Below, in pieces: positions 13,324 to 58,172 of a stretch of DNA of 64,000 nt. The DNA comes from an uncultured delta proteobacterium. GTDB taxonomy: Bacteria > Myxococcota_A > Polyangia > Polyangiales > B10-G4. A program made the position numbers and the translations under genes. Numbering within the stretch: the stretch's first letter is position 1; each line of letters begins with the position of its first letter. Location of the stretch: the NCBI GenBank assembly GCA_963727445.1, contig CAVSGI010000017.1, positions 128,001 through 192,000 of the forward strand, given 5' to 3'. Under the pieces are notes generated by a model that did no database searches, was not told the origin of the DNA, and was given only the letters and a program-made list of their open reading frames with translations.

Positions 13324-13328
13324 TCGAC

Positions 13329-23650: not shown

Positions 23651-23679
23651 ACTTTGACCCGAGAACGGGTCTCCGTCCA
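23651..23679 (-). promoter_or_regulatory. Shared pyrimidine-catabolism promoter/operator, copy A
   Basis: TGGACG-GAGACCCGTTCTCGGGT-CAAAGT; contains palindrome GACCCG-N4-CGGGTC; recurs at 33423, 45869 and 58144. Confidence 0.75.
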
Positions 23680-23736
23680 ACCTTCGTGCCCGAGTGAGCT
23701 AAACCCTCGAAATCGTTTCGTGAGTCGCCACAGGGC

Positions 23737-25761
23737 TCAAAAGCCACCGCCCGGGACCGGCAGCGAGGTCCCGTCGAAATTGATGCCATTGTCTCGATAG
23801 ACGACGCGGTCGCTGAGGTCGGCCGGATCGATCGTCCCGAGTTGGCTGTTCACGCCGACGGGGTTGTCGGCGATGAGACCGTCGCGGATGGACACGGCAC
23901 CGGGGGAGACGAGCTGCAGCCCGGCGACCTCGTGATTCGAGGTGATGAAGCGCTCCATGTCGAGACCACCGGAGTCGAGCACCACGATGCCCATCCCGGC
24001 CCCGTTGAGCGCGTTGGCCGCGGTCGCTTCGACGCGCACGTCGGTGAGGGAGAGCGAGCCGCTCGGCCCGAGGAGCATGACGCCCGCTTCGGTGCTTCGA
24101 AGCACCTCGCAGCGGGTGCAGCTGAACGTCGCGCCGAGCTGCACCGAGACCCCGCGGCCGCCAGCGCCCGCCGATGTCGGCACGTTGTCCGTCACCACCG
24201 CATCCTCGACCGCGAGCCGCGTATCCGAATCGGTGGCGATCACGGCGCCGCCGATGCTGCCTGGGCTCTGGAGACGCCGAACCGTCACGTCCGCACCCAT
24301 GCGGACCTCCACCGACGCGGCGGCACCGATCATCCGTGAGAGCTCGGGCGCGAGGTCGAGAGTGGTCAGGTCGTCGACCTCCACCAGGGTGCCCGGATTG
24401 ATGGCCGCGATCGCGGCCCCCTTGGTGCCTCGCGTCAGGACGCGCTCCATGACGACGGACTCCGCGGAGTCGATGACGAAGCCGATCCCTCCGGCCATGT
24501 CGCTCAGCTGAGGTCGCACGTCCTGCAGGATGGTGTCCCGGAGTGTGACGTTCAGACCGAAGCCGACCATGGTGAAGGCAGCGCCGGTCGTGCGCGCGAG
24601 GTGGAGCCGCTCGGCGGTCAACGTGCCGCGCACGTTGAGCCCGATCCCGTAGCCGGTATCCCCCCGGAAGGCATCCGACTCGACGTCGCGGATGACGACC
24701 GTGTCGAGATCGCCGTTGGTTCCGCCGGAGAGGAAGAGCCCCGCGCTGTGCACCCGCTCGACCACGACGCGGAGCGCTTCGACGGTGCCCCCCGCGGCTG
24801 CAGCGATGCCGTTGCCGAGGCCCGCATCCGGGCGGTCCACGACGTCCGTGACCGCCACGTCTTCGACGCGCAACGAGCCGCCGCCGTTGATCCCGATCCC
24901 TGCCGCGACGCTCCGCTGGATCACACCCTGACGAATTTCGACGCGGCTCGTGTCGTTGATGAAGACGCCGAAGCCTACGTCCGTCGATTGGTTGTCGGTG
25001 TCGCGGATCGCGATCCGCTCGGCCACGACCGACGCCATCCCGGTGGCCGCCAGAGCGATGAGCGCGACGCGCACCTGCAGATCGCGGAGGTGGCACTCTC
25101 CATCCGACGCCCGGATGCCGGGGCGCAGGCCGGCGACCGTCAGGTTCGACAGAGACGATCCCGCGCCCATGAGCACGCCATGGGTCGACAGATCCCCGGC
25201 GGGGAGGTCGAGGACGGTCTCGGCGACACACGCCCCGACCAGGGCGACGTCGGCGGGGAGGTCGAAGGTCTCCGGATAGACGCCGACCGACACGGCGATG
25301 GTGTCGCCCGCCGTGGCCACCGCCACCGCCTCGGCGATCGTCCCGAAGGGAGCGCTGCGGCTTCCGTCGCCGCCCGTCTCCCCGGCGCGGACGTAGTGAA
25401 CGGTCGAATCGGCGGGCAGGTCGGCGGGCCAACCGTCGGCGGCGCAGCTCGTCCCGAGCGGCGCACAGCGCGCGTCCCCGGGGAAGCGAACCTGGTCGTC
25501 CGGGCAGCCCTCCCACGCGGCGGGCCACGGCTCACACGACTGTGCGCCGGCGACATCCAGAGGCGTCCATCCCGCGGGGCACTCGCCGAAGGAAGGAAGC
25601 GCAGGAGCCGCGGGGGGCGCTGGCGTGGTCGGCATGAAGACGGCCGAGTCCACGGCGCCGTCGGCAAGGCCGGTGTCGCCGGCGTCGATGATGGCGCCGT
25701 CGTCGCCGCAGGCCGCCACACATGACACGAGCGCGACGAGCGACCAGCGTAGGTGCTTCAC
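23737..25761 (-). CDS. Right-handed parallel beta-helix lipoprotein (DUF1565-like)
   Basis: Lipobox VAAC; YV...GDGS..APF.TI.EA....AGDTI.V..G.Y.E; repeated beta-helix turns; paralog of 33505..35553. Confidence 0.8.
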   Translation of the reverse strand: MKHLRWSLVALVSCVAACGDDGAIIDAGDTGLADGAVDSAVFMPTTPAPPAAPALPSFGECPAGWTPLDVAGAQSCEPWPAAWEGCPDDQVRFPGDARCAPLGTSCAADGWPADLPADSTVHYVRAGETGGDGSRSAPFGTIAEAVAVATAGDTIAVSVGVYPETFDLPADVALVGACVAETVLDLPAGDLSTHGVLMGAGSSLSNLTVAGLRPGIRASDGECHLRDLQVRVALIALAATGMASVVAERIAIRDTDNQSTDVGFGVFINDTSRVEIRQGVIQRSVAAGIGINGGGSLRVEDVAVTDVVDRPDAGLGNGIAAAAGGTVEALRVVVERVHSAGLFLSGGTNGDLDTVVIRDVESDAFRGDTGYGIGLNVRGTLTAERLHLARTTGAAFTMVGFGLNVTLRDTILQDVRPQLSDMAGGIGFVIDSAESVVMERVLTRGTKGAAIAAINPGTLVEVDDLTTLDLAPELSRMIGAAASVEVRMGADVTVRRLQSPGSIGGAVIATDSDTRLAVEDAVVTDNVPTSAGAGGRGVSVQLGATFSCTRCEVLRSTEAGVMLLGPSGSLSLTDVRVEATAANALNGAGMGIVVLDSGGLDMERFITSNHEVAGLQLVSPGAVSIRDGLIADNPVGVNSQLGTIDPADLSDRVVYRDNGINFDGTSLPVPGGGF

Positions 25762-25780
25762 CGGTGCATCGTACTCGATC

Positions 25781-25813
25781 GGGCACGGGCACGGGCACAA
25801 GCACGGGGCACGG
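25781..25813. repeat. Short GGGCAC hexamer tandem repeat (intergenic)
   Basis: gggcac gggcac gggcac aagcac ggggcac ggg. Confidence 0.7.
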
Positions 25814-25836
25814 GAGCCGGTTGCCGAGGCAACCGG

Positions 25837-27996
25837 CTAGCGCCGGATGTCGAGGAGATCGAGGATGAAAGCGTAGGTGAGCGCCGTCTCACGATGGCGG
25901 CGGAAGCGGCCCGAGGCGCCCCCGTGGCCCGCGTCCATGTTCACCGAGAAGAGCAGCCGGTGGTCGTCGGTCTTGAGCTCTCGCAGGCGCGCCACCCACT
26001 TCATCGGCTCCCAGTACTGCACCTGCGAGTCGTGGAGCCCGGTGATGACGAGCATGTGGGGGTAGGCCTGCGCGCTCACGTTGTCGTAGGGCGAGTAGCT
26101 CATCATGTAATCGAAGTACGTGCGGTCGTTCGGGTTGCCCCACTCGTCGTATTCGAAGGTCGTCAGCGGGATGGTCTCGTCGAGCATGGTGGTGACGACG
26201 TCGACGAAGGGCACATCGGCGACGATCGCCAGGAAGAGCTCCGGCGCCATGTTGGCGACGGCGCCCACCAGGAGCCCGCCGGCGCTTCCGCCGTGCGCGA
26301 AGAGTCGATCGGGCGCGGTCCACCCCTGGTCCACCAGGTAGCGCGCGCAATCGATGAAATCCTCGAAGGTGTGCCGCTTCTCGAGGAGCCGGCCGTGCTC
26401 GTACCAGGCGCGGCCCATCTCCTGCCCACCGCGGATGTGGGCGATGGCGTAGATGACACCGCGGTCGAGGAGACTGATCCGTGTGGACGAAAAGGTCGGG
26501 TCGAGGGAGTAGCCGTACGCGCCGTAGCCGTACAGGAGTAGCGGTTGGGGCTGACTGCGATCGAGGTCGCGCCGATAGACGACGGAGATCGGCACCGCCG
26601 TGCCGTCGCGCGCCGTGGCGGTGAGACGGGTGGTCGCATAGGCCTCCGGATCGAAGTCGCCCTCCACGCGATCACGCTTGCGGAGCGTCATCTGGCGCGT
26701 CTCCATGTCGTAGTCGTAGACCGACCAGGGCGTGGTCATGGAGCTGTAGTCGAGGCGCAGGGTGGTGGTGTCCGGCTCGGAGTTCGTTCCGATGTCCGCG
26801 TAGTACGCCGGCTCTTCGAAGGCGACCTCGTGGGCAGCGCTTCTGTCGGCCCAGGGGATCACCCGCACGCGCGCGATCCCGTCACGTCGCTCCGCGACCA
26901 CCAGATGATCGTCGAAGAGCTCGAAGCCGCGGAGGTGCACGCCATCGCGCGCCCCGATCTCCTCGCGCCAGTTCGTCTTGTCCTCGCTCCGCCCGGGCTC
27001 CACCGACATCAGGCGAAAGTCGCGGGCCTGCCAGTTGGTGCGGATCCAGAAGCGCCCCTGGAAGTGATCGATGTCGTACTCGTGATCGTCCTCGCGATCG
27101 AGAAAGAGCACCGGCTCCGACTCTGGGTTTCGCGCATCCACGTAGCGGTATTCGTGGCTGAGGGTCTGGTAGCTCCCGATGAGGATGTATCGCCGGGAGC
27201 GGCTCCGGCTGATACCCAGGAGGAACTCGGCATCGGTCTCGTCGTAGACCATCACGTCCTCGCTGGACGCGGTTCCGAGGGTGTGTCGCCAGACCTGATG
27301 CGCGCGCAGCGTTCCTTCTTCACGCTTGATGTAGAAGACGGTGCGGTTGTCGAGCGCCCAGACCAGCGCGCCGGTGGTTCCCTCGATCACGTCGGGGAGG
27401 CGCTCGCCGGTCTCGAGGTCACGGAAGCGCGCGGTGTAGATCCGCCGGCTCACGGTGTCCTCGGCGTAGGCGAGGATCTTGCCGTCGACGGTCACCGTCA
27501 GCCCCGTGGCCGCGTAGTACTCGTGGCCCTCCGCCTCGGCATTGGCGTCGAGGATGACCTGCTCCTCCGCGTCGAGGTTCCCTGCCTTGCGGCAGTAGAT
27601 CGGGTACTCCTTCCCCTCCTCGACGCGGCTGTAGTACCAGTAGCCGTCGAGGCGATAAGGCACCGACTCGTCATCCTTCGGGATGCGCGCGACAATCTCT
27701 TCGTAGAGCGCCTCGCGAAAATCTGCGACGGGCGCCAGCATCCCCTCCGCGTATTCGTTCTCCGCACGGAGATGAGCCAGCACCTCGGGATCGCTGCGGT
27801 CGTCGCTGCGCATCCAGAAGTACGGGTCCTGACGAACGACCCCATGCTCTCGATGTTCGTACGGAACCTGCTTCGCGATGGGTGGGGTCATGTGTCGTTC
27901 TCGGGGAGGGTGGTCGGTGTGGGTGACGGTCGTCCGCGTCCCGCCGCAGGCCATGGCGAGGAGGAGGAAAGCGTGGGAGCAGAGGCGCAGAGCCAT
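25837..27996 (-). CDS. ptrB: Oligopeptidase B (S9A family) with lipoprotein signal
   Basis: DPYFWMR, LLLYGYGAYG, HIRGG.EMG, GGSAGG, VPFVDV, EYDEWGNP, D..V.YWEP.KW, AGHGG; lipobox LAMAC. Confidence 0.92.
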   Translation of the reverse strand: MALRLCSHAFLLLAMACGGTRTTVTHTDHPPRERHMTPPIAKQVPYEHREHGVVRQDPYFWMRSDDRSDPEVLAHLRAENEYAEGMLAPVADFREALYEEIVARIPKDDESVPYRLDGYWYYSRVEEGKEYPIYCRKAGNLDAEEQVILDANAEAEGHEYYAATGLTVTVDGKILAYAEDTVSRRIYTARFRDLETGERLPDVIEGTTGALVWALDNRTVFYIKREEGTLRAHQVWRHTLGTASSEDVMVYDETDAEFLLGISRSRSRRYILIGSYQTLSHEYRYVDARNPESEPVLFLDREDDHEYDIDHFQGRFWIRTNWQARDFRLMSVEPGRSEDKTNWREEIGARDGVHLRGFELFDDHLVVAERRDGIARVRVIPWADRSAAHEVAFEEPAYYADIGTNSEPDTTTLRLDYSSMTTPWSVYDYDMETRQMTLRKRDRVEGDFDPEAYATTRLTATARDGTAVPISVVYRRDLDRSQPQPLLLYGYGAYGYSLDPTFSSTRISLLDRGVIYAIAHIRGGQEMGRAWYEHGRLLEKRHTFEDFIDCARYLVDQGWTAPDRLFAHGGSAGGLLVGAVANMAPELFLAIVADVPFVDVVTTMLDETIPLTTFEYDEWGNPNDRTYFDYMMSYSPYDNVSAQAYPHMLVITGLHDSQVQYWEPMKWVARLRELKTDDHRLLFSVNMDAGHGGASGRFRRHRETALTYAFILDLLDIRR

Positions 27997-28075
27997 GAGG
28001 GAGCGGTAGCCGGCCAAGGGAGGGTTTTCAAGTTGGCCGGGCCTCTGCAACTCCGTAATCTGTGCCGACGGCCCC

Positions 28076-31000
28076 ATGGGCGAGCTCGACGAGACAGAGA
28101 CGGCGCGCGGCGCCCTTCCCGGGCAGCCGCTCGCACCCGAACCGTCCGAGCCGTTGATCCGGGGCATGATGCTCACCGATCGGCTGCGCCTGGTCCGTCC
28201 TCTGGACCGCGGCGGGATGGGGTCGGTGTGGGTCGCCGAGCACCTGGGGCTCGGCAACGAGGTCGCGGTCAAGTTCGTCCTCGGTCGCGCCAACGACAAT
28301 CGCGCGAAGCGGCTGGCGCGCGAAGCGCAGCTCGCCGCCCGCCTGGTGCACCCGCACGCGGTGCGCGTCTTCGATCACGGCGTGACCGATCACGGCACGC
28401 CGTTCATCGTGATGGAGCTCCTCGAAGGCGAGACGCTCAACGACCGGATCCAGCGCGCGGGGCGGATGACCATCGACGAGGTGCGCCAGCTGGTGACGCA
28501 GGTCACGGGGGTGCTGGAGGAGGCGCACGGCCTCGGCATCGCACACCGCGACATCAAGCCGCACAACATCGTGCTGCTGGAGGCGACCGAAGGCCTCTTC
28601 GCCAAGGTGCTCGATTTCGGCATCGCGAAGTCTCTGGATGAGGACATCTCATCGAGCTTGACGACCGAAGGCGAGGTCATCGGGACGCCGGTCTACATGG
28701 CACCCGAGCAGTTGGTGGAGGGGCTGCCCGCAGGAGAGAGCGCCGACCTCTGGGGGCTGACGGTGGTCGCTTATCAGGCGCTCACCGGGCAGCGGCCCTT
28801 CGAGGGGCGCACCCGCGCCGCGCTGGGCGTGGCCATCCTGCTCGGTCGTTACGCCGCCCCCTCGGCGATCGATCCCGCCGTGCCTTCCGACATCGACCGC
28901 TTCTTCGCCGACAACCTCTCCGTCGAACCGAGCCAGCGATGCGCCACGGCGAGCGAGCTCCGCGAGAGCTTCCAGAAGGCCGCGACGAGCAGCGCCCGGG
29001 GGACAGCTCGAAAGCCCCGCCACGAGGGCCGCCTGGTGATCCCCGATCGACTCTACGGGCGGGAGCGAGAAGTGGCGACGCTGCTCGGCGCATTCGATCG
29101 GGCGGCGGCGGACCGCTCGCGCCTGGTGCTGATCGCGGGGTACTCGGGCATCGGCAAGACCGCGCTGGTCGCCGAGATCGAAACGCCCCTCGACGCGCGC
29201 GGCGCGACCTTCGTCGGGGGCAAGTTCGACCAGTTCGACAGGGGCACGCCCTACGCCAGCCTGGTGCAGGCCTTCCGCGGTCTGGTGCTCCGCATCCTGT
29301 CGGGCAAGGAGCGCGAGGTCTGGCGCCGGCGCATCGTTCGGGGCGTGCGCGAGAACCTCGCCGCGCTGACCGACGTGATTCCGGAGCTCACGGATCTCAT
29401 CGGCCCTCAACCCGCGCTCGAGCCCGCTTCGCCGGGCGAGGCGCGCAGCCGTTTCCAAGCGACCATCGGTCGCTTCGTCGCCGCCCTCGCCTCGTCGGAG
29501 CGGCCCCTGGCGATCTTCCTCGACGACCTGCAGTGGGCGGATCTGCCGTCGCTGGACCTCATCGCTTCTCTCGCGACGAACCCGGAGAGCCGACACGTCC
29601 TGTTGATCGGGACCTATCGCGACAACGAGGTCGACGAAGCACATCCGCTCACGGCGATGATCGGACGCGTGCGCGACTCGGGCGCGGCCCTCGACGAGGT
29701 CGCCCTCGGGCCGTTGGGTGAAGAGGCGGTCTTGGATCTCGTCACCGACGCGACCCACAACGCGCCCGGCCGCGTGCGCCTCGCGGTGGAGTGCCACAAG
29801 AAGACGCGCGGCAACGCTTTCTTCCTCCGTCGCTTCCTCGAATCGCTCACCGAAGCCGACCTGCTCCGCTTCGACGCCGACTCGAATACCTGGACTTGGG
29901 ATCTCACCGAGATCCAAGCCGTGCCCATGGCGCCGAGCGTGGTCGATTTCGTCGCGGACGAGATGCGGCGCATGCCAGAGCCCCAGAGGCAGCCCCTGGG
30001 CGTGGCCGCCTGCATCGGCGCGCGCTTCGACCTGGCGGTGCTCGCGTTCGTTCTCGGCATCGATCGAGGCCGCGCCCTCGAGGCGCTCCGTGGAGCGCTC
30101 GAGTCCGAGATGGTCCTGCCCGAGACGCATGGCAGCTGGCTGGCCGGCCCCATCGACCTGCACGAAGGGCGACTCTCCTTCCGCTTCGCCCACGACCGCG
30201 TCCGGCAGGCCGCGCGCTCTCTCGTGGACGACGAAGCGGCCGCGCTGATCCACGGGCGCGTGGGGCGCTACCTCCTCGACCACCTCGACCCCGCGGAGCG
30301 CGAGCAGCGGCTCTTCGAGGTCGTCGAGCACCTGAACCGCGGGGGCGCGGAGGACCTGGAGAGCACCGGTGCGTCGCGCTTGCGCCGCCTGAATCTCGAC
30401 GCGGGCAAGCGGGCGCTCGCCTCCGCCGCGTTCGAGCCGGCGTTTCGCTATTACCAGGAGGCGCACGCTCGCCTGCCGCAGAGCGCCTGGGACGATGGCT
30501 ACGCCGAGACGCTGGACATCCACGTCGAAGGGGCGCGGGCCGCCTACCTGAGCGGCGAGTACGACGCGATGGAAGAGCTGTTGGGCGTCGCCCTCGCGCG
30601 GGCGAAGAGCCCGGTGGAAAGGGCCCGGGTTCAACAGGTGCGCCTTTCGGCCCTGGTGAGCCAGGAGCGCTTCGTCGAAGCCTTCGCCCTCGCCTCGCCG
30701 GTCCTCGCCGAGCTGGGGGTGACGCTCCCGGAGGCGCCCACCGGCGAGGACGTGAAAGCCGCGGTGGGCGCATCCCTGGGCGTGATCCAAGAGCATGGGG
30801 CCGAGGCGATCCTCTCCCTCGAGCGATGCGAGGACCCCGAGGTCGTCGCCGCCATGCACATCCAGTATCAGGTGATGTCGAGCGCCTACCTCGTGCAGCC
30901 CAACCTGGTGCCGGTCCTGACCTCGAACATGGTCCGGGCGACCGTGGAGCACGGCCTGTGCAGAGAGTCGCCCTACTGCTTCAGCGTGCTCGCCCTGGTC

Positions 31001-31984
31001 TTGAACGCCGCCAACCTCATCGAGGCCTGCGCCGGCGTCGGTGAGCTCGCCCTCGGCCTGCTCGACAAGGTCGACGATCGCGCCATCCGGCCGAGCACGC
31101 TTCACGTGATCGCGTGCTACGTGCATGCGTGGACCCATCCCCTGCGCGAATCGATCGAGGCCGAACGGCGCGTCTTTTCGGTGGGCATGGACGTCGGGGA
31201 TCTCGAATACGCCGGATGGGGTCTGCACGTCGGGATGCTCAACAGCTTCGTCAGCGGCACCGAGCTGTCGAGCCTCTTGGAGACGGGCGAAAAGGACATC
31301 GCCATCCTCCGTTATCACCAGCAGCTCCCTCCTCTCTCCTGCTCGGTGCCCATCGCTGGCGCGGCCGCGACCCTCGTGGGGGCGCAGCCCGAGCCGCTTT
31401 ACGACGAAGCTGCGCACCTGTCGGCGCTCGAGGAGGCCGGCTTCCGGGGCGGCGTATGCGTCACCGCGACGATGGGGGCCTTCGTTCGTTTCGTGATGGG
31501 CGATCTCGAAGGCGCAGCCGAATGGGCCGACAAGAGCCTCGCCCACCTGGACGGCGCGGTCGCGACCTACAACGGCGTGCTCGGCCACCAGACCCTCGCG
31601 CTTGGCAGGCTCGGGCAGGTTGCACCGGGCGATCCGGAGGTCGACGCCGTCGTGGCGTCGGTGGCTCCGCACCTCGAGCAGCTCGGCATCTGGCGCACCG
31701 CCTCCGAGGCCAACCACGCCCATCGCGTGCTCCTGATCGAGGCCGAGGTCGCTCGCGTCCTGGGGCAGGACGAAGAAGCGGCGCAGCTCTACGATCGCGC
31801 CATCCTGCAGGCAGGAGGCGAGGAGTTCACCCAGGACGTCGCCCTCGGCCACGAGCTCGCCATGCGCTTCCATCGCGCGCGCGGCGACGACGGCGCGGCT
31901 GAAGCGCACCGGAAAGCGGCTCGAACGGCCTACGAAGCGTGGGGTGCGCGCGCGAAGTGCGCGCAGCTCGACGCCGCCGGTTGA
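28076..31984 (+). CDS. Ser/Thr protein kinase fused to STAND/AAA ATPase and helical repeats
   Basis: RGGMGSV, VAVK, HRDIKPHN, DFG, GTPVYMAPE; LYGRE.E, GYSGIGKT, FLDDLQWAD, F.HDRV. Confidence 0.92.
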   Translation: MGELDETETARGALPGQPLAPEPSEPLIRGMMLTDRLRLVRPLDRGGMGSVWVAEHLGLGNEVAVKFVLGRANDNRAKRLAREAQLAARLVHPHAVRVFDHGVTDHGTPFIVMELLEGETLNDRIQRAGRMTIDEVRQLVTQVTGVLEEAHGLGIAHRDIKPHNIVLLEATEGLFAKVLDFGIAKSLDEDISSSLTTEGEVIGTPVYMAPEQLVEGLPAGESADLWGLTVVAYQALTGQRPFEGRTRAALGVAILLGRYAAPSAIDPAVPSDIDRFFADNLSVEPSQRCATASELRESFQKAATSSARGTARKPRHEGRLVIPDRLYGREREVATLLGAFDRAAADRSRLVLIAGYSGIGKTALVAEIETPLDARGATFVGGKFDQFDRGTPYASLVQAFRGLVLRILSGKEREVWRRRIVRGVRENLAALTDVIPELTDLIGPQPALEPASPGEARSRFQATIGRFVAALASSERPLAIFLDDLQWADLPSLDLIASLATNPESRHVLLIGTYRDNEVDEAHPLTAMIGRVRDSGAALDEVALGPLGEEAVLDLVTDATHNAPGRVRLAVECHKKTRGNAFFLRRFLESLTEADLLRFDADSNTWTWDLTEIQAVPMAPSVVDFVADEMRRMPEPQRQPLGVAACIGARFDLAVLAFVLGIDRGRALEALRGALESEMVLPETHGSWLAGPIDLHEGRLSFRFAHDRVRQAARSLVDDEAAALIHGRVGRYLLDHLDPAEREQRLFEVVEHLNRGGAEDLESTGASRLRRLNLDAGKRALASAAFEPAFRYYQEAHARLPQSAWDDGYAETLDIHVEGARAAYLSGEYDAMEELLGVALARAKSPVERARVQQVRLSALVSQERFVEAFALASPVLAELGVTLPEAPTGEDVKAAVGASLGVIQEHGAEAILSLERCEDPEVVAAMHIQYQVMSSAYLVQPNLVPVLTSNMVRATVEHGLCRESPYCFSVLALVLNAANLIEACAGVGELALGLLDKVDDRAIRPSTLHVIACYVHAWTHPLRESIEAERRVFSVGMDVGDLEYAGWGLHVGMLNSFVSGTELSSLLETGEKDIAILRYHQQLPPLSCSVPIAGAAATLVGAQPEPLYDEAAHLSALEEAGFRGGVCVTATMGAFVRFVMGDLEGAAEWADKSLAHLDGAVATYNGVLGHQTLALGRLGQVAPGDPEVDAVVASVAPHLEQLGIWRTASEANHAHRVLLIEAEVARVLGQDEEAAQLYDRAILQAGGEEFTQDVALGHELAMRFHRARGDDGAAEAHRKAARTAYEAWGARAKCAQLDAAG

Positions 31985-31996
31985 CCAGCAGCCTCG

Positions 31997-33391: not shown

Positions 33392-33422
33392 CGCTCGCTC
33401 CTCCAGCCTCAGAAGAGCGAGG

Positions 33423-49035: not shown

Positions 49036-50714
49036 GGCGAGGTCTCCATGACGGGGGCCACCGTGTCCTGATCGGCCACGCGGTAGAGGAAGGTCTCCGA
49101 GAGCGCGAGCCCGACCAACAGCTCGCGCACGTCGAAGTCGGCGCCGCGGAACTTACCGAGCAGGTCGTCGAGCGCGCAGGCGTCCTGCGCTTCGTCGCCG
49201 CGCCCGAAGGCCTGGGGAAACCAGCGCTCGGCGAAGCAGGTCTGGGTCTGCTGGCTCTCGATGAGCATGTGCGCCAGGTCGACGCCGTTTTCGAAGGCGC
49301 CGTCGTTGTCCGAGTCGGTGAGCTCGCCGGAGGCGTCGATGGGGATGTCGTTCTCGGTGGCGCGGAAGCGCCCCGCCGCGTCGAAGTTCTCGAAGGCGAA
49401 GCCCAGCGGGTCGAGCTGGCGGTGACAGGACGCGCAGTAGGGATCGGAGCGGTGCGCCGCGAAACGCTCGCGGGTGGTCGCGTCGGGGTCGGGGTCGGGC
49501 AGCGTGATGTCGAGGCCCGAGGGGACGTCGGGGATGACGCCGCACATCACGTTGCCGCGGATGAACATGCCGCGGTGAACCGGGGAGGTCTCGTAGGTCC
49601 GGGCGCGGGTGGCCAGGACGCCGCCCTGGGTCAACACCCCCGAGTGGTATTGCGCGTCGAGCTCGACGCGCTCGAAGCTGTCGCCGGCCGGGCCGCTGAC
49701 GCCGTAGTACGCGGCGAGGTCGGCGTTCATCATCGACCAGGGCGCCGTCATCAGCGTGATCCAGCTCCCGTCGCCCCGGAACACGACCTCCTCGACGAAG
49801 GCCTCGGTCTCCTGGCGGAAGAGATCGGGCGTGCCTTCGTTCCACTGGGGGAAGAGGGTCACATCCTTGTCGACGGTGTCGAGCTTGTCGAGCTCGAGGA
49901 AGCGCTGGAAGAAATGCTGCACCGTGGCGTGCGCCTGCGGATCGTCGAGCATGCGCCGCACGTGCGCTTCGACGCCGGCGTCGGTGTCGAGCTCCCCCGC
50001 CTCGGCGGCCGCGAAGAGCGCGTCGTCCGGCATGGTCTGCCAGAGAAAATAACTGAGGCGCGTGGCGAGCTGATAGCCGGTGAGACGGACGACCGCCTCG
50101 CCGCCGGTGGGCACGATCTCGACGCGATAGAGGAAGCTCGGCGATTGGAGCATGGCCTCGAGGACCATCTGGACGCCGACCTCCACGCCCCCATCGTCCC
50201 GGCCCGCTTCGTAGAGCGCATAGAGTCGATCCACCTCGCCGTCCTCGGCCGGCCGCCGATACGCGAGAGGCACCGTGCGCTCGATGAAGTCCAGGGCGCA
50301 GTCGTCGTCCCCCAGGGCCGCGCGATCGCAGCCGAGGGTCTCGTCGAAGACCGCGGCGTCGACCAGGCGCGCGGCGACGTCCTCGGCGGCGTACATGTAC
50401 TGCTCGGCGAGGAGCGGCGTCACGAGGCGCGCATCGGCGCTGAGGACGCCGCGCTCGTTGTCGACCAGGCGCGCCGCCGGCTCGCTGGTGTCGCCGAAGA
50501 GATCCCTCAGGGTGTTGTCGTATTCGGTGACGGTCAGGCGCCGGAGCGGCGCCCGGCCGGGGAAGAGAGCGTCGCCCTCGCAGACGACCGGGGTGGGCCC
50601 GGTGGGATCAGGGCCCGGACCACCGCCGGGGGAGATCCCCGGGTCCGAGATGAGTCCCTGGCAGCCCGAAAGGACCGCCAAAAGGAGCCAGGACAGCTTG
50701 CTCCGCCCGCTCAA
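49032..50714 (-). CDS. DUF1592/DUF1588/DUF1595/DUF1587/DUF1585 multi-domain lipoprotein with heme-type CxxCH
   Basis: RRLT..EYDNT.RDL, LQSPSFLYR, LATRLSYFLW..MPD, TSPVHRG, CASCH..LDPLGFAFENFD; TTG start after GGAGG. Confidence 0.9.
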   Translation of the reverse strand: MSGRSKLSWLLLAVLSGCQGLISDPGISPGGGPGPDPTGPTPVVCEGDALFPGRAPLRRLTVTEYDNTLRDLFGDTSEPAARLVDNERGVLSADARLVTPLLAEQYMYAAEDVAARLVDAAVFDETLGCDRAALGDDDCALDFIERTVPLAYRRPAEDGEVDRLYALYEAGRDDGGVEVGVQMVLEAMLQSPSFLYRVEIVPTGGEAVVRLTGYQLATRLSYFLWQTMPDDALFAAAEAGELDTDAGVEAHVRRMLDDPQAHATVQHFFQRFLELDKLDTVDKDVTLFPQWNEGTPDLFRQETEAFVEEVVFRGDGSWITLMTAPWSMMNADLAAYYGVSGPAGDSFERVELDAQYHSGVLTQGGVLATRARTYETSPVHRGMFIRGNVMCGVIPDVPSGLDITLPDPDPDATTRERFAAHRSDPYCASCHRQLDPLGFAFENFDAAGRFRATENDIPIDASGELTDSDNDGAFENGVDLAHMLIESQQTQTCFAERWFPQAFGRGDEAQDACALDDLLGKFRGADFDVRELLVGLALSETFLYRVADQDTVAPVMETSP

Positions 50715-50810
50715 ATTTTCCTCCCGCCGCACCGAGTGTTCGAAGGTCATCTTAGCACGCGAGACTCCCATGAGCGTCCGCGCTAAGGACTGCTAAGGTA
50801 GGGCCCGCCG

Positions 50811-51482
50811 ATGGGGAAAGAAGCCAAACATATCTGGGTGGTAGAGGATGATCCGGGCATCGCCAGCCAGCTGGTCCGGGGCCTTCGCAGGGCTGGTTTG
50901 ATGGTCTCCCTCTCCACCCAGGACCTCGACGTCCGGGAGTGTCTGAGGGCCGAGCCGGACCTGGTGATCCTCGACCTGATGCTCCCCGACAGGAGCGGCT
51001 TCGAGATCCTCGCCGAAATCCGCGAGCGCTCCTCACTGCCGGTGATCGTGGTGACCGCGCGGGGCAATCTCGAGGACCGCCTCAAGGCCTTCGACCTCGG
51101 CGCTCAGGACTACGTCACCAAGCCCTTCTTCGTCGAAGAGGTGCTGGCGCGGGTGCGGGTGCGCATCGGCGGCGAGACCGAGCGCGACATCATCGAGTTC
51201 GGCGGCGTGCGCATGGACCGGACCGCTCGCGAGCTCACCAAAGACGGCGAGAGCCTCGCGCTCACCCCCTACGAGTACGAGCTCCTCGAGTACCTCGTGG
51301 AACGCGCCGGACGCGCCATCTCCCGCGACGTGCTGTCCAAACAGTTGGTCCGCGGCAACCCCAACGCCAACGCCCGCAGCGTCGACAGCCACGTCGCCAA
51401 GCTGCGCAAGAAGCTGGGCGACGAGGCCTCGGAGCACATCCGCACCATTCGCGGGCTGGGCTACCGCTTCGACCCAGAATGA
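50811..51482 (+). CDS. OmpR-family response regulator
   Basis: VVEDD, ILDLMLP, VTAR, DYVTKPF, VDSHVAKLRKKL, TIRGLGY. Confidence 0.95.
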   Translation: MGKEAKHIWVVEDDPGIASQLVRGLRRAGLMVSLSTQDLDVRECLRAEPDLVILDLMLPDRSGFEILAEIRERSSLPVIVVTARGNLEDRLKAFDLGAQDYVTKPFFVEEVLARVRVRIGGETERDIIEFGGVRMDRTARELTKDGESLALTPYEYELLEYLVERAGRAISRDVLSKQLVRGNPNANARSVDSHVAKLRKKLGDEASEHIRTIRGLGYRFDPE

Positions 51483-52531
51483 GCCGGATGCAGATCGGCC
51501 GCTCGATATCGGTTCGCATCCTGATCGTCACCAGCGCCTGCGTGCTCTTCAGCGCGGTGCTCCTGAAGATCAGCGGCGCCGACCCCTTCGAGAGCGTGAC
51601 CGGCGGGGGTCTTCTCGTCCTGTTGCTCCTGACCACCATGGTCCTGAGCCACGTGGCGATCATCCAGCCGCTGAACCGTCGCTTCGAGAAGCTCACCAAG
51701 CTCGCCGGCAGCGTCGGAAAGGCGGAGGAGACGGTGGAGCCCGAGGTGACCCACGACGAGATCGGCCAGGTCTCGCGGGCCCTGGCTGGCGCGCACCGGC
51801 GCATGCTCGATCACGAGCGCTTGCTCAGCGCGCAGTACCAGGCGCTCCGCATGAAGCAGATCAACGTGGCCCACGATCTGCGGACGCCGCTCACCTCGCT
51901 CCTGATGTCGCTCGAGAACGCCCGCGACGCCGCGATGAGCGCGAACGAGGATCCCGCGCCATCGATCCGCGACGCCATGGCCGAAGCGCTCTACATGACG
52001 TCCCTGGTGCAGAACCTCCGAATCGCCAGCCGCATGGACGCGGGCTTCGCGAGCCTCGGCGCCCGCGCGCCCCTCGATCTGACGTCGCTGGTGCAGCGGG
52101 TGGCGAACCGCTTCCGCCTCCTCGCCAAGGGCGGCGGCACGGAGATCCACGTCGCCTATCCCGATGAGCCGGTCATGGCCCTCGGCGACGACACGATGAT
52201 CGAGCAGCTGGTCACCAACCTGGTGCAGAACTCCCTGACCTATGGAGGCGGCATCGATCAGCAGATCATCATCAACCTCGACGCCGAGGACGGCCGCTTC
52301 ACCCTCGACGTCCTCGACGAGGGCCCGGGGATCAGCCCCGACGCCCTCGAGCTCATCACCGAGCGCTGGGTGCGCGGCGCCGCCGGCAAGGGACGCAGCA
52401 AGTCGGGACAGGGCCTCGGCCTGGCGATCGTGAGCGAGGTCGCCGCGGTCCACGACTGGACGCTGAAGCTCGAAAATCGCGAGGAGCGGGGCCTGAGGGC
52501 GCGCGTCGAAGGCGCCACCACCGCGAGCTGA
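51479..52531 (+). CDS. Sensor histidine kinase (2 TM, HAMP)
   Basis: AHDLRTPL, NLVQNS, DEGPGI, GQGLGL; ATGA overlap with the response regulator. Confidence 0.92.
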   Translation: MSRMQIGRSISVRILIVTSACVLFSAVLLKISGADPFESVTGGGLLVLLLLTTMVLSHVAIIQPLNRRFEKLTKLAGSVGKAEETVEPEVTHDEIGQVSRALAGAHRRMLDHERLLSAQYQALRMKQINVAHDLRTPLTSLLMSLENARDAAMSANEDPAPSIRDAMAEALYMTSLVQNLRIASRMDAGFASLGARAPLDLTSLVQRVANRFRLLAKGGGTEIHVAYPDEPVMALGDDTMIEQLVTNLVQNSLTYGGGIDQQIIINLDAEDGRFTLDVLDEGPGISPDALELITERWVRGAAGKGRSKSGQGLGLAIVSEVAAVHDWTLKLENREERGLRARVEGATTAS

Positions 52532-52534
52532 CGC

Positions 52535-53125
52535 TCAACTCGAGCCGTGCGCGTCGACCACGGCCTTCATCGCCGCGAAGCCTTCCTCGATCTTGGCGAA
52601 GAAAGAGCTCCGGTGCGCGACCACGGTCAGGTTCGGATGCTTCGACCACAGCGCGAGGAGCGCGCGGTCGATCCGGCTCGCCTCGACGTCGTCCTCGATG
52701 CGGGTGGGGTTGTTGCCCTCGATGCTCATCCCGCCGACCGCCGCGCTCTCGAAGAAGATGACGGCGTCGTAGCGAGCGAGCTCGGCCTCGAGGGTCGTGC
52801 CCATGGCCTCGAAGAAGTCGCCGTCCACGGGCCAGTAGGCGGCGCCATCGACCGTACCGCGATCACAGAGGAGGACCCGCTGTGGATGGAGGCTCGCGTG
52901 CAGGTCCTCCATGTTCTGCTGGACGTGGAAGATCGCCCGCTGCGCATGGCGACGGGCGTCGGTGGCCGTGGTGCGAGGAAAGCCGCCGCTGAAGAGCATG
53001 GTCGCCGCCTCGGGGACCGCGGCCACACGGTCCCCCAGCTCGCGTCGGAAGAGGTCGAGGGCGGTGCTCTTGCCACCACCGGGCCCCCCGGTGATGGCAA
53101 TACGGCATCGCGTGTGCGTGCTCAT
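52535..53125 (-). CDS. AAA_28/NadR-like P-loop NTPase
   Basis: ITGGPGGGKST, VPEAAT, LCDRG. Confidence 0.85.
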   Translation of the reverse strand: MSTHTRCRIAITGGPGGGKSTALDLFRRELGDRVAAVPEAATMLFSGGFPRTTATDARRHAQRAIFHVQQNMEDLHASLHPQRVLLCDRGTVDGAAYWPVDGDFFEAMGTTLEAELARYDAVIFFESAAVGGMSIEGNNPTRIEDDVEASRIDRALLALWSKHPNLTVVAHRSSFFAKIEEGFAAMKAVVDAHGSS

Positions 53126-53140
53126 GGCCGGGCGCGTGGC

Positions 53141-54970
53141 TCAGCGCCGGCGGCGCCGCACGAGGGCGAGGCCGATCAGGATGCCGAAGAGCACCGTGGG
53201 GGGCGCGGTCTCGGAGCGGGACACCGAGCAGCCACCGCCGGGCTCGACGGGGGGCGGCGGTGGCGGTGTGCACATGGCCACGGTGCCGTCGTCGGAGAGC
53301 ACACACTCGAAGGCGCCTGAGCACGGAGCGTCGGAGCTGCACTCCTGGGTGCATACCCCACCGGTGCTGCAGATGCCGGAGATGCAATCGTCATCCACGG
53401 TGCAGGCGTCACCCACGACGCCGTTGGCCGGCGCGCAGATGCTGGAGTCGCCCACGGCCGTGCAGTCGAAGCCTTCGGGGCAGGGGTTTTCGTCGCTGCA
53501 GAACGTGGTGCACCAGCTGACGCCGGTGCGCGTCGCGCAGAACGTGTCGTCCATGCAGTCGCCGTTTTCGATGCAACCGCCGCCGATGCTGGCGAGGGCG
53601 CCGCGGACGCAGAGCCCGTCGCGACAATGGAAGCGATCGCCCCTGCCGCAATCGGAGTCGGTGGTGCACGCATGCGAGCAGTAGGAGAGCCCGGCCTCGC
53701 TCAGACATTCGCCCGAGGCGCACGCGTCGCTACCGTCGCAGGGCTCGCCGAGCCCGCGCGCGCCCACGACGATGTGTTCGTCGACGCAGCCGCCGCATGC
53801 GCCCATCGCCGCCGCGCAGACCTCGCCGCCGAGGCACATGCCGTCGCCACCGCGGCAGGGCGTGAGGCAACGCTGGCGGCCGTCGCCGGGGTCTGCGCAG
53901 AAGAGGCTCGCGCACTCGAGGTCATCGGTGCAGGGCGCGTCGACGCCGAGAGGCTCCGGCCGTGCGTCGGGCAGGGGCACGCAGAGGCCTTCGCATCCGC
54001 TGGTCCGCGCGCAGTACAGACCGGTCGCGCAGCTGAGCTCCGGGCGGAGTGGATCGCACTCGGTGGTGCAGCGGCGCCCGGCAGGGGTGTCGGCGCAGTT
54101 GTTGCCGAGGCACTCGTCGTCGAGGGCGCACTCGGAGCCGAGGGGAAGGCAGGTCTCGTCGACCTCGCCGTTGCAGTCGTTGTCGTATCCGTCGCAGCGC
54201 TCCTCGCCGTCGTTGAGGCAGGAGCCCGAGTCGCCCACCACCATGTCGATGAGATCGAGGTAGGTGTCGACGCGGTTGGCGCCGGCGAGGCCGCCGGTGC
54301 CGCAGCCGGTGCCGCCGAAGGAGGTGATGGCGACGATCTCGTTCGTCTCGCTGAGGATGATCGGCCCGCCGCTGTCGCCCTGACAGGTGAGGTCGCCGGT
54401 GTAGAGCACGTTGCCGTCGATGTAGCGGATACGGCCGGTGGTGCTGTATTTGGTGCCGGCGTCTGCTCCCGGCGTCCGGCCGAAGCCGATGGCGGTGACG
54501 TCGTCGCCCACGAGCTCGCTCACGTCGCCGCGGTAGACGCCGATGGGATCGATGCCGCTCACCCCGGTGGCGAGGGTGATGAGCGCGACGTCGTTGCCGA
54601 CCAGGCCCCGGAGCCGTGCGTCGTAGGATCCCGGCGTGGTGTGAACCTCGATGGCGTTGAAGCTCTGGCTCACGTGATTGATCGAGTCGCCGATGCCGAT
54701 GGTGAATGCGGCGGCGGGGTCGGGCGACGTGGCGTTCTCCTCCTGCACGCAGTGCTTCGCCGTGAGGATCACGCGGGGGGCGATCAGCGAGCCGCTGCAC
54801 ATCCCGCCGAGGCGGCGGTTGTACAGGACGATGACCGCCGGGTTGTGGTCGAGGACCCCGTCGACGATGGGCTCGGCCCGCGAGCCGACCGAGCCATCAC
54901 CGGTGGGCGCTGTGCAGCTCGCACCCGAGAGAAGAAGAGAAATAGCCCCCAAGAACGAAATCCACCGCAT
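53141..54970 (-). CDS. Trypsin-like S1 serine protease with Cys-rich repeats and MYXO-CTERM-like tail
   Basis: CSGSLIAP.VILTAKHC, DVAL, CQGDSGGP; CDGYDNDCNG.VDE; GGGCSV...TM...RRRR. Confidence 0.92.
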   Translation of the reverse strand: MRWISFLGAISLLLSGASCTAPTGDGSVGSRAEPIVDGVLDHNPAVIVLYNRRLGGMCSGSLIAPRVILTAKHCVQEENATSPDPAAAFTIGIGDSINHVSQSFNAIEVHTTPGSYDARLRGLVGNDVALITLATGVSGIDPIGVYRGDVSELVGDDVTAIGFGRTPGADAGTKYSTTGRIRYIDGNVLYTGDLTCQGDSGGPIILSETNEIVAITSFGGTGCGTGGLAGANRVDTYLDLIDMVVGDSGSCLNDGEERCDGYDNDCNGEVDETCLPLGSECALDDECLGNNCADTPAGRRCTTECDPLRPELSCATGLYCARTSGCEGLCVPLPDARPEPLGVDAPCTDDLECASLFCADPGDGRQRCLTPCRGGDGMCLGGEVCAAAMGACGGCVDEHIVVGARGLGEPCDGSDACASGECLSEAGLSYCSHACTTDSDCGRGDRFHCRDGLCVRGALASIGGGCIENGDCMDDTFCATRTGVSWCTTFCSDENPCPEGFDCTAVGDSSICAPANGVVGDACTVDDDCISGICSTGGVCTQECSSDAPCSGAFECVLSDDGTVAMCTPPPPPPVEPGGGCSVSRSETAPPTVLFGILIGLALVRRRRR

Positions 54971-55148
54971 CACCACCTCCGAGAACCCCACGCACCGGAT
55001 AGAGAGGGCACCCACGAGGGAGCACGTCCACCCACCCTGCTTGCGCTGCGTGGCTTTAGGACACGGCGGAGGAGCGGTAAAGAATGCCCCCCTTCAGGGG
55101 CAATGAGACGGCAACAGATCGCTTCTCGATCCCACGAAGCCGTGGAGA

Positions 55149-56126
55149 TCAGTGTCCGCGGCGCCTGCGCAGAATCAGGACGGAGAATGTGAGAAAAGAC
55201 ACGAGCGCCCGCCACGGCGCGCGCTGCGCAGCGGCCCCGACGGTGCAGGCAACGCAGCCCGATCCATGGGCCACGATGTTTCCGGTGCCGCCGTCGCCCG
55301 CATCGCCCGCGCCGCCATCGGGCGCGGCGGACGCGGCGCATTGGCCCGTGTCGTCGCAATGGCCGCTGAGGCAGCGCCGATCGCGATCGCAGACCGCCCC
55401 CACGCCGCCGGCCATCGAGCACTCGGTGCCGGCGCAGTAGCTGTCGGGCTCGCAGTCCTCGTCGACGGAGCACGTCGCACAGGAGGTGTCATCCTGGCAC
55501 ACGCCGAAATCGCAGGCGACGGTCGCGGGGCCGCAGACGCCCGTCGCGTCGCAGAGCTGATCCGTTCGAACCCCGTCCGCGCAAGAGGCCATGCCGCAAG
55601 AGGCGCCCGCCGGGGCCGCGGACCAGCCGTCAGGCAGGGTGTCGGGCACGCAGAGCTCGCAGGGCACATCGGGGTTGGGCTCGCCGTCGTAGCGGCAGGT
55701 GCCGTCGATCAGGCAGGCGCCGGCGCGGATGGGGTTCTCGCAGACGTCATCGGTGTCGTTGCAGCGATCGATGGTGCACGAAAGTCCGTCGACGCAACCC
55801 CTCCGCGGTCCCGCCATGCAGAGCCCGGCTCCGTCGCAGACGTCTCCGTCGGTGCAGAACGCGCCGTCGGTGCACTCGGTGCCCATGGGGCGAGGCGGAT
55901 GGTCACAGGTGTCTGTGGCCTCGTTGCAGACGTCGTCGGTGCACGCGACTCCGTCGAGACAATCGCGCGGTTGCCCGACGCAGGTGAGGGTCGTGTCGCA
56001 TCGATCCGTGACGGTGCACCACTGCCCGTCGTCGCACGCGTCACCGGCGGCCATGCACTGTGCGCGCGCAACCCCGGCGTTCAGCGCGCTGGCACAAAGC
56101 ACGACGAGCAAGAGTGAAGAGCGCAC
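55149..56126 (-). CDS. Cys-rich repeat surface protein with MYXO-CTERM-like tail
   Basis: C.DG..CT..D.C repeats; GSGC..C.V + TM + RRRR. Confidence 0.8.
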   Translation of the reverse strand: MRSSLLLVVLCASALNAGVARAQCMAAGDACDDGQWCTVTDRCDTTLTCVGQPRDCLDGVACTDDVCNEATDTCDHPPRPMGTECTDGAFCTDGDVCDGAGLCMAGPRRGCVDGLSCTIDRCNDTDDVCENPIRAGACLIDGTCRYDGEPNPDVPCELCVPDTLPDGWSAAPAGASCGMASCADGVRTDQLCDATGVCGPATVACDFGVCQDDTSCATCSVDEDCEPDSYCAGTECSMAGGVGAVCDRDRRCLSGHCDDTGQCAASAAPDGGAGDAGDGGTGNIVAHGSGCVACTVGAAAQRAPWRALVSFLTFSVLILRRRRGH

Positions 56127-56174
56127 CGAACGATGGTGGCGCGCGAGGCTGTCACCGAGCAAGTTGCGCCACGC

Positions 56175-56555
56175 TCACCGGCAGGTCAGGAGCTCGCAGT
56201 CCCAGACCTGACCGTCGGAGCACACGGGCGTGCAATCCACCTCGCCGCAGGAACCGCAGGTCATGCAGCAAACCGCGCCGGGGGTATCGAGGCAGGAAGG
56301 CTCGCACTGACCCGGCGCCGTGGTCGACCCGTCCCCGGTCGTCGAGCCATCGGTGGAGACCGAGGTGTCGGCGACGGCGCCATCGCCCACGGCGGTATCG
56401 CCGACACCACCATCGAAAGATCCGTCGGCGGAGCCGTCGATCGTGACGGAAGAATCCCCGCCCGACGACCGCGGCCCCCGGTATCCATTGCCACAGCCGA
56501 ACAGCAGGAAAGCGACCGCGAGGACGAGGCCACCTTTGAGCGCAGTAGAAGTCAT
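56175..56555 (-). CDS. Small Cys-rich lipoprotein
   Basis: Lipobox LFGC, D/G/S/T linker, 10-Cys C-terminal domain. Confidence 0.72.
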   Translation of the reverse strand: MTSTALKGGLVLAVAFLLFGCGNGYRGPRSSGGDSSVTIDGSADGSFDGGVGDTAVGDGAVADTSVSTDGSTTGDGSTTAPGQCEPSCLDTPGAVCCMTCGSCGEVDCTPVCSDGQVWDCELLTCR

Positions 56556-56626
56556 GTCAGCTCCAGAAGGTTCGCGAGGTGCTACGCCACCCTAGCACGC
56601 CACCTTCCTTCGCGACCCGGCTCGCT

Positions 56627-58108
56627 TCAGCTCATCCAGTTGGCGTCGGGCTGCAAGCTCCACTTGGTCGTGAGCTTCTGCGTGCGGGACCAGAGCTCGA
56701 CGCCGCCAGCGCCGGTCATGTCGCCCTGGCCGAAGCGCGAGGACTTGGCGCCGCCGAAGCTGAAGGGCTCGCGGGGGACAGGGACGCCGACGTTGACGCC
56801 CACCATGCCGGTGGGGACGCGATCGGCGACGTAGCGCGCGACGTCCCCGCGGCTGGTGAAGACGCTGGCGGCGTTGCCGTAGGGCGTCGTGTCCTGCAGG
56901 GCGAGGGCCTCATCGAGCGTCTTGACGCGGACGATGGTGAGCACCGGGCCGAAGAGCTCCTTGGTGGTGCACTCCATCTCCATCGAGGCGTGGTCGATGA
57001 TGGTGGGGGCGAGCCAGTTTCCCTTTTCATAGCCCGAGGGCGCCGCGGCGCCGCGGCCGTCGAGGCGGATCTTCGCGCCTTCGTCGGCAGCCTTCGCGAT
57101 GTCGGCGTTCAGGCGGTCGAGCGCCGCCGGATCGATGATGGCGCCCATGTCGGTGCCGAGCTGGACCTTCCCGGCCTTTTCGATGATCGCATCGATCAAG
57201 TGATCGACGTTACCCACGGCGATCATCAGGCTGGCCGCCATGCAGCGCTGGCCGGCGCAGCCGATGAAGGAGCTGACCACGCCGTCGACGGTCACGTCCT
57301 TCTCGGCGTCGGGGACCACGATGAGGTGGTTCTTCGCGCCGCCGAGGCAGAGGGCGCGACGATCCTGCTTGGTGACGCGCTCGTAGACGGCGCGCGCGAC
57401 CGGCGTCGAGCCGACGAAGCCGAGCGCCTGGACGTCCGGATGGTCGGCCAGGGCCTCCACCGCGTCGCGGCCGCCGTGGATGATGGAGAAGACGCCGGGC
57501 GGAAAGCCCGCCTCGACCATCAGCTCGCCGCTCATGTGCGCCGTCAGCGGCACCTTCTCGGACGGCTTGAGGATGAAGGCGTTGCCGAGGGTGACGGCGA
57601 TCGGGTACTGCCACATGGGCACCATCGCCGGGAAGTTGAAGGGCGTGATGCCGGCGACGACGCCGAGCGGGAGGCGACGGGTCTCGCAGGTGACGCCGCG
57701 GCTCACCTCGAGGATGTTGCCCACGTCCATGTTCTGAAGGCTGAGGGCGTACTCGACGATCTCCACGCCCTTGAGGACACCGGCCTTCGCCTCGGCCACC
57801 GTCTTGCCGGACTCGATCGCGGCCGAGTTGCTCAGCCGGTCGATGTGCTCGAGGACGAGCTCGCGGAAACGGAAGAGCACCTGGGTGCGCTCCTTGATCG
57901 GCACCGCGCGCCAGGCGACCTGCGCCTCCTTCGCGGCAGCGACCGCAGGCGCCACGTCGGCGGCCTTGCTCACCGGGATCGTCCCGATGACTTCGTTCGT
58001 GTATGGCGTGACGACGTCCATCCGCTCGCCGCTCTGGGCGTCGCGCCACTCACCGGCGACGAGGTTTTTGGCGACGATGGGCGTGTTCGGAAGCTCTACC
58101 AAGGACAT
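56627..58108 (-). CDS. mmsA: CoA-acylating (methyl)malonate-semialdehyde dehydrogenase
   Basis: ITPFNFPAMVP, KPSE, FVGST, GGAKNH, CAGQRCMA, ELFGP, GMVGVNVGVPVP. Confidence 0.93.
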   Translation of the reverse strand: MSLVELPNTPIVAKNLVAGEWRDAQSGERMDVVTPYTNEVIGTIPVSKAADVAPAVAAAKEAQVAWRAVPIKERTQVLFRFRELVLEHIDRLSNSAAIESGKTVAEAKAGVLKGVEIVEYALSLQNMDVGNILEVSRGVTCETRRLPLGVVAGITPFNFPAMVPMWQYPIAVTLGNAFILKPSEKVPLTAHMSGELMVEAGFPPGVFSIIHGGRDAVEALADHPDVQALGFVGSTPVARAVYERVTKQDRRALCLGGAKNHLIVVPDAEKDVTVDGVVSSFIGCAGQRCMAASLMIAVGNVDHLIDAIIEKAGKVQLGTDMGAIIDPAALDRLNADIAKAADEGAKIRLDGRGAAAPSGYEKGNWLAPTIIDHASMEMECTTKELFGPVLTIVRVKTLDEALALQDTTPYGNAASVFTSRGDVARYVADRVPTGMVGVNVGVPVPREPFSFGGAKSSRFGQGDMTGAGGVELWSRTQKLTTKWSLQPDANWMS

Positions 58109-58143
58109 GATTTCCCCACTGACTCTCTAGAGACGAAGCGGGC

Positions 58144-58172
58144 AATCTGACCCGAGAACGGCGGGCGCGCCA
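58144..58172 (-). promoter_or_regulatory. Shared pyrimidine-catabolism promoter/operator, copy C
   Basis: TGGCGC-GCCCGCCGTTCTCGGGT-CAGATT. Confidence 0.7.

Follow-up and report, generated by a model that had tools for sequence, protein, structure and literature searches.

How can the genes of one catabolic pathway stay under common control when their operon has been broken into pieces? The question is raised by a 64,000-nucleotide (nt) stretch of DNA from an uncultured delta proteobacterium of the order Polyangiales (contig CAVSGI010000017.1 of assembly GCA_963727445.1; the whole stretch is hereafter called the window), in which the genes for pyrimidine catabolism (pyd) lie in four blocks separated by unrelated genes. 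We analyzed the predicted promoters in front of these blocks, designated sites A to D, in this genome (assembly G000, 9.47 Mb) and in a sister species (G001, 7.1 Mb), the sole congener compared. The four sites are predicted to be housekeeping sigma-70 promoters. Three of them contain a 14-bp box, CCGTTCTCGGGTCA, and on the sequence comparisons given below we put the chance at a little better than even that a repressor specific to the genus uses this box as its operator, which promoter copying may have spread.

Promoter-like anatomy of the four sites

The initial annotation had described four 29-nt segments on the minus strand as a shared promoter/operator, and all four were recovered letter for letter with spacers of 17 nt. 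Its claim that TGGACG-N17-CAAAGT precedes all four blocks holds exactly for sites A, B and D but not for site C, which reads TGGCGC and CAGATT, as the annotation's own text had already recorded. This pattern occurs three times in the window, compared to a mean of 0.00 and a maximum of 0 over 100 shuffles, and a scan of both strands of the 9.47-Mb genome returned the same three matches, all in front of pyrimidine catabolism genes. The corresponding promoters of G001 all keep the 17-nt spacer, with the hexamers TGGACG/CAAAAT (pydD), TGGACG/CAGAGT (hydA), TCGACG/CATGGT (pydC) and TCGACG/CAGAGT (mmsA), and a C at -12 as well as a G at -14 are common to all eight sites of the two species. A fixed scorer, the weights of which were set by hand after the sites had been seen, ranked the site top upstream of its gene in seven of eight cases; the exception was mmsA of G000, where a slightly higher score went to a repeat-derived site 170 nt upstream. 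The element TTT(C/T)CCAGGG, said to be common to A and B, is indeed present 7 nt past the -10 hexamer, but the likeness is weak, as 4.6% of unrelated promoter-leader pairs reach it. Comparable promoter builds were also seen before pydD (by eye) and mmsA of G115, another genome of the order. The predicted pydD, preT and preA promoters of G115 (loci L192 and L193) stop 7-9 nt before the ATG, a leaderless-like arrangement.

Genome-wide data bear out the reading of the hexamers as -35 and -10 elements. T[TGC]GAC-N17-[TC]ANNNT is enriched upstream of genes with a spacer peak at 16-18 nt, and among 4058 upstream regions TTGACN-N17-CANNNT was found 25 times (4 in shuffles) and TCGACN-N17-TANNNT 21 times (3 in shuffles). 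Comparison of orthologs over 1.2 Mb of the 7.1 Mb of G001 yielded 253 pairs with an intergenic gap and 17 conserved promoter-like pairs, five of which were set aside as coding-like. A TCG or TGG -35 element was present in seven and a -12 C in five of the 12 retained pairs of unrelated genes, the search pattern having permitted both; one of the -12 C pairs lies before an era-like GTPase gene (family named by eye). As promoters of this class are also kept in front of unrelated genes, the hexamers as a type are not specific to pyrimidine genes; they match the general promoter class of the genome, and the specificity would therefore sit in the spacer. As regards anatomy, the promoter reading is well supported by these comparisons. 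An unconstrained expectation-maximization promoter model was discarded after it had drifted to a TCGA composition.

The pyd sites resemble RpoD promoters in their TNGAC-like -35 element, 17-nt spacer, -11A/-7T and -14 G, and differ from them in the -12 C found in all eight and in an unusually shared spacer. The RpoD-like protein of G000 has canonical regions 2.4 and 4.2, judged against E. coli RpoD. A dedicated alternative sigma factor reading T(G/C)GACG together with an extended -10 (GGGTCA...T) would agree with the confinement of the exact hexamer pair to pyd genes, and G000 has 48 matches to sigma-70 region 2. We nevertheless regard such a factor as highly improbable, as TCGAC or TGGAC -35 elements and CANNNT -10 elements at 17 nt are conserved in both species before unrelated genes (the seven and five of 12 pairs above) and the enrichment of TTGACN-N17-CANNNT extends over the genome. 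The combination of -11A/-7T with a 17-nt spacer is the primary-sigma pattern.

A conserved box in the spacer

The presence of CCGTTCTCGGGTCA in A, B and C, as first annotated, was confirmed, and both strands of the genome contain these three matches and no others, all in the same register of pyd promoters. The box lies over the spacer and takes in two bases at the start of the -10 hexamer, at about -25 to -11. In G001 it is kept at 14 of 14 bases before pydC and 12 of 14 before mmsA. Four-fold sites of five pyd genes are identical between the two species at 0.51-0.59, against 0.47-0.49 expected for unrelated sequence, and neutral DNA has therefore nearly lost its likeness. Spacer identity among the five box-bearing promoters is nonetheless 12-15/17 in nine of ten pairs (B versus the mmsA site of G001, 9/17), including pairs across different genes such as A and C versus the pydC site of G001 (15/17 and 14/17) or A-C and B-C (13/17 each). 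All pairs with D or with the hydA or pydD promoter of G001 show 4-7/17. Among 5460 pairs of spacers from 105 unrelated sigma-70-like promoters of G000, five reached 12/17 and none 13 or more. The earlier proposal of a constrained element in the spacer thus stands, as the element is kept despite near-saturated synonymous sites.

A matrix built from the four G001 sites alone placed A 1st, B 3rd, C 35th and D 364th among 18.9 million G000 positions. The box is conserved beyond neutral expectation in five of the eight promoters and is absent from both hydA promoters and the pydD promoter of G001. The lack of an operator box at hydA, noted in G000, accordingly holds in both species, but hydA is not the lone exception it had been taken for. 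Judged from these alignments, the spacer box is the specific signal and the hexamers are ordinary, and the box is real and probably functional.

The palindrome GACCCG-N4-CGGGTC noted in site A is present, and the box there is enclosed by an imperfect 20-bp palindrome (23654-23673); taken by itself, the 6-4-6 form has eight occurrences in the genome. As the core of the element the palindrome is not supported, with arm pairs of 6/8 in A, 3-4/8 in B, C and the two box sites of G001, and 1/8 in the pydD promoter of G001. Matrix and palindrome scans for a wider regulon gave one strong extra site (G000:C8:520880), TCGACG-N17-CAGCAT with a near-perfect 20-bp dyad in the register of site A, located before an HGSNAT-like acyltransferase gene. 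In G001 the orthologous site has retained the hexamers and the CGGGCCA right arm but lacks the dyad (loci L117 and L122). The site is compatible with a fifth target and with a general promoter element alike. No such promoter was found at pyrimidine synthesis and salvage genes, which were picked by sequence motifs and in several cases clearly wrongly.

Beyond the genus, a search of 399 other genomes of the order gave no exact match to the box and 35 matches with one mismatch, compared to 37 for a reversed control; none of the 28 of these 35 viewed as loci had a pyd gene within 1.5 kb. The box was absent from the pyd upstream regions of the 80 metagenome loci listed, among which there was no congener, and in one run of DNA reads the matches listed were distant coding pieces only.

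Break-up of the pyd operon

The gene set of the window (Table 1) is one that we take to be a complete reductive pathway from uracil through beta-alanine to acetyl-CoA. On the minus strand the order is site C-mmsA, insert, site B-pydC, insert, site D-hydA, insert and site A-pydD-preT-preA-NCS1, that is, four pieces. In relatives, hydA lies immediately 3' of pydC in 11 of the 16 that have a close pydC, and pydD immediately 3' of hydA in eight of the ten that have a close pydD ortholog. G001 has the identical gene order and breaks at the identical three junctions, its hydA-pydD interval extending over two contigs whose junction we infer. The contents of the inserts differ: one of the 23 insert genes of G000 (55149-56054) has a homolog among the G001 inserts, a 43.5% match in the corresponding insert, and the genes of the pydC-hydA insert have none there. 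A search of the inserts for remnants of duplicated pyd genes found none. Other genomes of the order, for example G115, have split the cluster independently, and mmsA stands behind its own promoter in several relatives as well; the hydA and pydD promoters would therefore be the new ones.

Table 1. Predicted promoters, pyd genes and intervening segments in the window
Feature	Position	Strand	Remarks
Site C, predicted sigma-70 promoter of mmsA	58144..58172	-	TGGCGC-N17-CAGATT; box 58148-58161
mmsA, CoA-acylating (methyl)malonate-semialdehyde dehydrogenase	56627..58108	-	TIGR01722, 502 bits, above cut-off
Unrelated genes between mmsA and pydC	45841..56626		10.8 kb; cupin, DUF1552/DUF1592 pair, two-component system, trypsin-like, others
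Site B, predicted sigma-70 promoter of pydC	45869..45897	-	TGGACG-N17-CAAAGT; box 45873-45886
pydC, carbon-nitrogen hydrolase, putative beta-ureidopropionase	44968..45840	-	PF00795; hydA-adjacent in relatives
Unrelated genes between pydC and hydA	33392..44967		11.6 kb
Site D, predicted sigma-70 promoter of hydA	33423..33451	-	TGGACG-N17-CAAAGT; no box
hydA, dihydropyrimidinase	31997..33391	-	TIGR02033, 608 bits, above cut-off
Unrelated genes between hydA and pydD	23574..31996		8.4 kb; Ser/Thr kinase, oligopeptidase B-like, beta-helix protein
Site A, predicted sigma-70 promoter of pydD-preT-preA-NCS1	23651..23679	-	TGGACG-N17-CAAAGT; box 23655-23668
pydD, class-III aminotransferase, putative beta-alanine aminotransferase	22275..23573	-	PF00202; hydA-adjacent in relatives
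preT, dihydropyrimidine dehydrogenase iron-sulfur (Fe-S)/flavin subunit	20953..22278	-	PF14691 and PF07992
preA, dihydropyrimidine dehydrogenase subunit	19550..20935	-	NF006183, 521 bits; C-terminal Fe-S part in another frame
NCS1 nucleobase:cation symporter	18025..19527	-	TIGR00800, above cut-off

Further features of the assembly were observed in and around these genes. The C-terminal Fe-S part of preA (window 19537-19970) is out of frame with the rest of the gene, a frame change relative to G001, and many other genes of the G000 assembly, including pyrR and mur genes, are broken likewise, which suggests indel errors in the assembly. Positions 42500-44850, inside the pydC-hydA insert, are poorly coding with short open reading frame fragments and are possibly decayed mobile or pseudogene sequence. 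Tandem arrays are located at 13022-13336 (3 x 105 nt) and 58398-58539 (3 x 47 nt), and a 31-nt unit of the former is found again at 58590 (90%), which points to a small family of dispersed repeats.

Possible repression or promoter copying

Under the favored explanation, a repressor bound at the box would block RNA polymerase until a pathway intermediate releases it; both the binding of a protein and repression are inferred, the latter from the position of the box within the promoter. The hydA and pydD promoters may be copies of the pydC promoter made when the operon broke up. The box is retained in both species solely before pydC and mmsA and is added before pydD in G000. No comparison made here linked the box to uracil. 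As the genes with the box make or remove beta-alanine, a compound of the lower pathway, namely ureidopropionate, beta-alanine or malonate semialdehyde, may serve as effector and not uracil, although this is a guess. That the promoter was copied before each orphaned piece at the break-up to give an instant regulon, under the control of a new ureidopropionate/beta-alanine regulator or of RNA polymerase sensing cytidine or uridine triphosphate (CTP, UTP) at pyrimidine starts, as a catabolic counterpart of 'repression without repressors', and not of RutR or PydR, seems unlikely to us.

Because the hexamers of A, B and D are identical and A is a mosaic, with flanks like those of its own ortholog (leader score reached by 0 null pairs) and a spacer like that of the pydC promoter, copying probably contributed with or without a repressor. 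The same evidence could also be explained with no repressor at all, if duplication or gene conversion during the break-up of the operon had spread a single ancestral promoter and the shared spacer was kept as an aid to a -12 C promoter, either as an extended -10 or as a spacer shape read by RNA polymerase or a general factor. This possible but doubtful alternative is in line with the invariant -14 G, with the acyltransferase promoter of the same build that keeps TCGACG...CGGGCCAGCAT in both species, with another unrelated gene that keeps TTTCGG in the same register, and with the failure of the searches made to find a regulator gene. However, copying alone would not hold 14 consecutive bases through near-saturated divergence, and a general role of this spacer end is hardly visible upstream of genes, where CGGG[TC]CA...T is slightly enriched (37 vs 24 simulated) and GG.CA...T hardly so (495 vs 446). 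The lack of duplicated pyd remnants in the inserts likewise speaks against it, and the leader likeness of A-B and B-D lies at about the 3-5% level.

Several findings weigh against a repressor acting at the box. The whole case for the box comes from two genomes. The pydD promoter of G001 has no box within 450 nt; its hexamers and leader start are kept and its spacer matches that of A at 7/17. The dehydrogenase and permease unit pydD-preTA-NCS1 would thus be regulated differently in two congeners. Orthologous spacers of other genes (12 pairs) average 7.8/17, with two of 12 at 11-12/17, and the conserved promoters of two unrelated genes contain a portion of the box (TTCGG or CGGG before CA). The five box-bearing sites are weakly palindromic, with 6, 3, 3, 4 and 4 of 8 arm pairs. 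No linked or autoregulated regulator gene was found in a search that covered the TetR and GntR families and the cluster neighbours: the flanking genes of pyd clusters in relatives (93 of 97 scanned) contained no recurrent regulator and just two DNA-binding regulators, at one locus each, the TetR gene of the window was not found in five relatives, and the regions upstream of 31 TetR and six GntR genes gave no score for the box that clearly exceeded the range of random best scores. Finally, the RutR C-terminal domain PF08362 was detected in neither of the two genomes, each about 86% complete, by a search whose control matched E. coli and Caulobacter.

Relation to known regulators

The initial annotation had compared the outer arms with those of the RutR site, noting the different spacing; a link to RutR is supported neither by the domain search above, made in two genomes about 86% complete, nor by the motif. 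The RutR consensus is TTGACCAnnTGGTCAA (PMC2475637); the best agreement with this 16-bp dyad across eight 82-nt promoter windows was 7-9/14, and 250 nt upstream of the pyd genes contained no match with at most three mismatches. In P. putida, pydXA, hyuC and pydB are under the control of PydR (bioRxiv 10.1101/2022.01.11.475908). The system described here shares the pathway with these TetR-family repressors, and the right arm of the box, GGTCA(A), resembles the RutR right half-site; it differs in the absent 16-bp dyad, in a box that is asymmetric or a weak 20-bp dyad and in the lack of a PF08362 match. By analogy, it may work like a local repressor of the RutR/PydR type without being a member by motif.

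Regulators that respond to beta-alanine offer a second comparison, and include BauR and OapR. BarR, of the Lrp family, also responds to beta-alanine and controls a gene for beta-alanine aminotransferase (PMC4977709). The target gene of such regulators matches genes that carry the box here, a likeness by target, whereas no such regulator gene recurs among the scanned neighbours of pyd clusters. Four large genomes of a single genus have a PAS-STAS gene beside the pyd operon and divergent from it (L195-L197, L205).

For PyrR attenuation, upstream regions gave no full match to the binding-loop consensus; a partial match at B, one of 23 of this kind, overlaps the Shine-Dalgarno sequence, and an Rfam scan of the window had no matches. 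In the leaders of B and D, the 5' pyrimidines can pair with the Shine-Dalgarno sequence, though no better than in shuffles and not in G001. A frameshifted pyrR-like gene (G000:C8:559734-560260) is located directly before pyrB with a short intergenic gap, in which no PyrR-loop consensus was found. The pydC promoter of two further families has the conserved form TTGAG-N17/18-(TG)nTAC, mostly without the -7 T (L005, L006, L183-L185, L187-L189, L191). In many cases CCCCTTCGC and a complementary G-rich stretch come after it, and the two might form a conserved hairpin in the leader.

Possible nucleotide sensing at the transcription start

Control might also be exerted with no factor, if transcription starts in a pyrimidine run and initiation or start choice rises with CTP/UTP, turning catabolism on in a mirror image of E. 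coli pyrC/pyrBI control. We consider this quite improbable. Positions 7-10 after the -10 hexamer read CTTT, CTTT, TTCG and TCTT at the four sites, position 7 is C or T in all eight sites of the two species, and the pyrimidine or T run at the predicted start of A, B, D and the pydD site of G001 resembles pyrC/pyrD start-site switching and pyrBI reiterative transcription. The known cases of this class of nucleoside triphosphate-sensing promoters differ in that high UTP/CTP turns down genes of biosynthesis or salvage (PMC6524683).

In the discovery loci (score at least 9), TT occurred within positions 7-10 in 14 of 26 promoters at the head of pyd blocks (nine of the 26 being orthologous pydC promoters) and in two of 42 other genes, and pyrimidines at 7-9 in 18/26 and 9/42, respectively. 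The pre-set test on held-out loci at threshold 9 for the most part did not repeat this, with a pyrimidine at position 7 in 19/26 vs 18/23, TT in 6/26 vs 4/23 (p=0.45) and pyrimidines at 7-8 in 18/26 vs 10/23 (p=0.06). At threshold 8, pyrimidines at 7 and 8 were found in 26/42 vs 13/40 (p=0.007); at threshold 10 nothing was significant, and p<0.01 was reached in one of 12 comparisons in 68 loci and in none in 41 metagenome loci. The held-out set excluded two low-GC loci as well as loci of genomes already used, and its last 20 regions were 2.4 kb long with few controls. Moreover, position 8 is G in three of the four G001 sites, C/T-rich starts are common in G000, the leaders fold no better than shuffles, and nucleotide sensing leaves the spacer box unexplained.

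Significance

A literature search, outside of which lay most subscription journals and supplementary regulon tables, found nothing on this regulation in myxobacteria. The box is a new candidate operator of a familiar kind in an uncultured lineage of two genomes, and the payoff stays modest until the factor is named. If the box is an operator, it would mark a regulator of reductive pyrimidine catabolism in myxobacteria. The two species, with the same three junctions, mostly different fillers and a box gained or lost promoter by promoter, would then provide a small, clean example of a broken-up operon retaining shared control.

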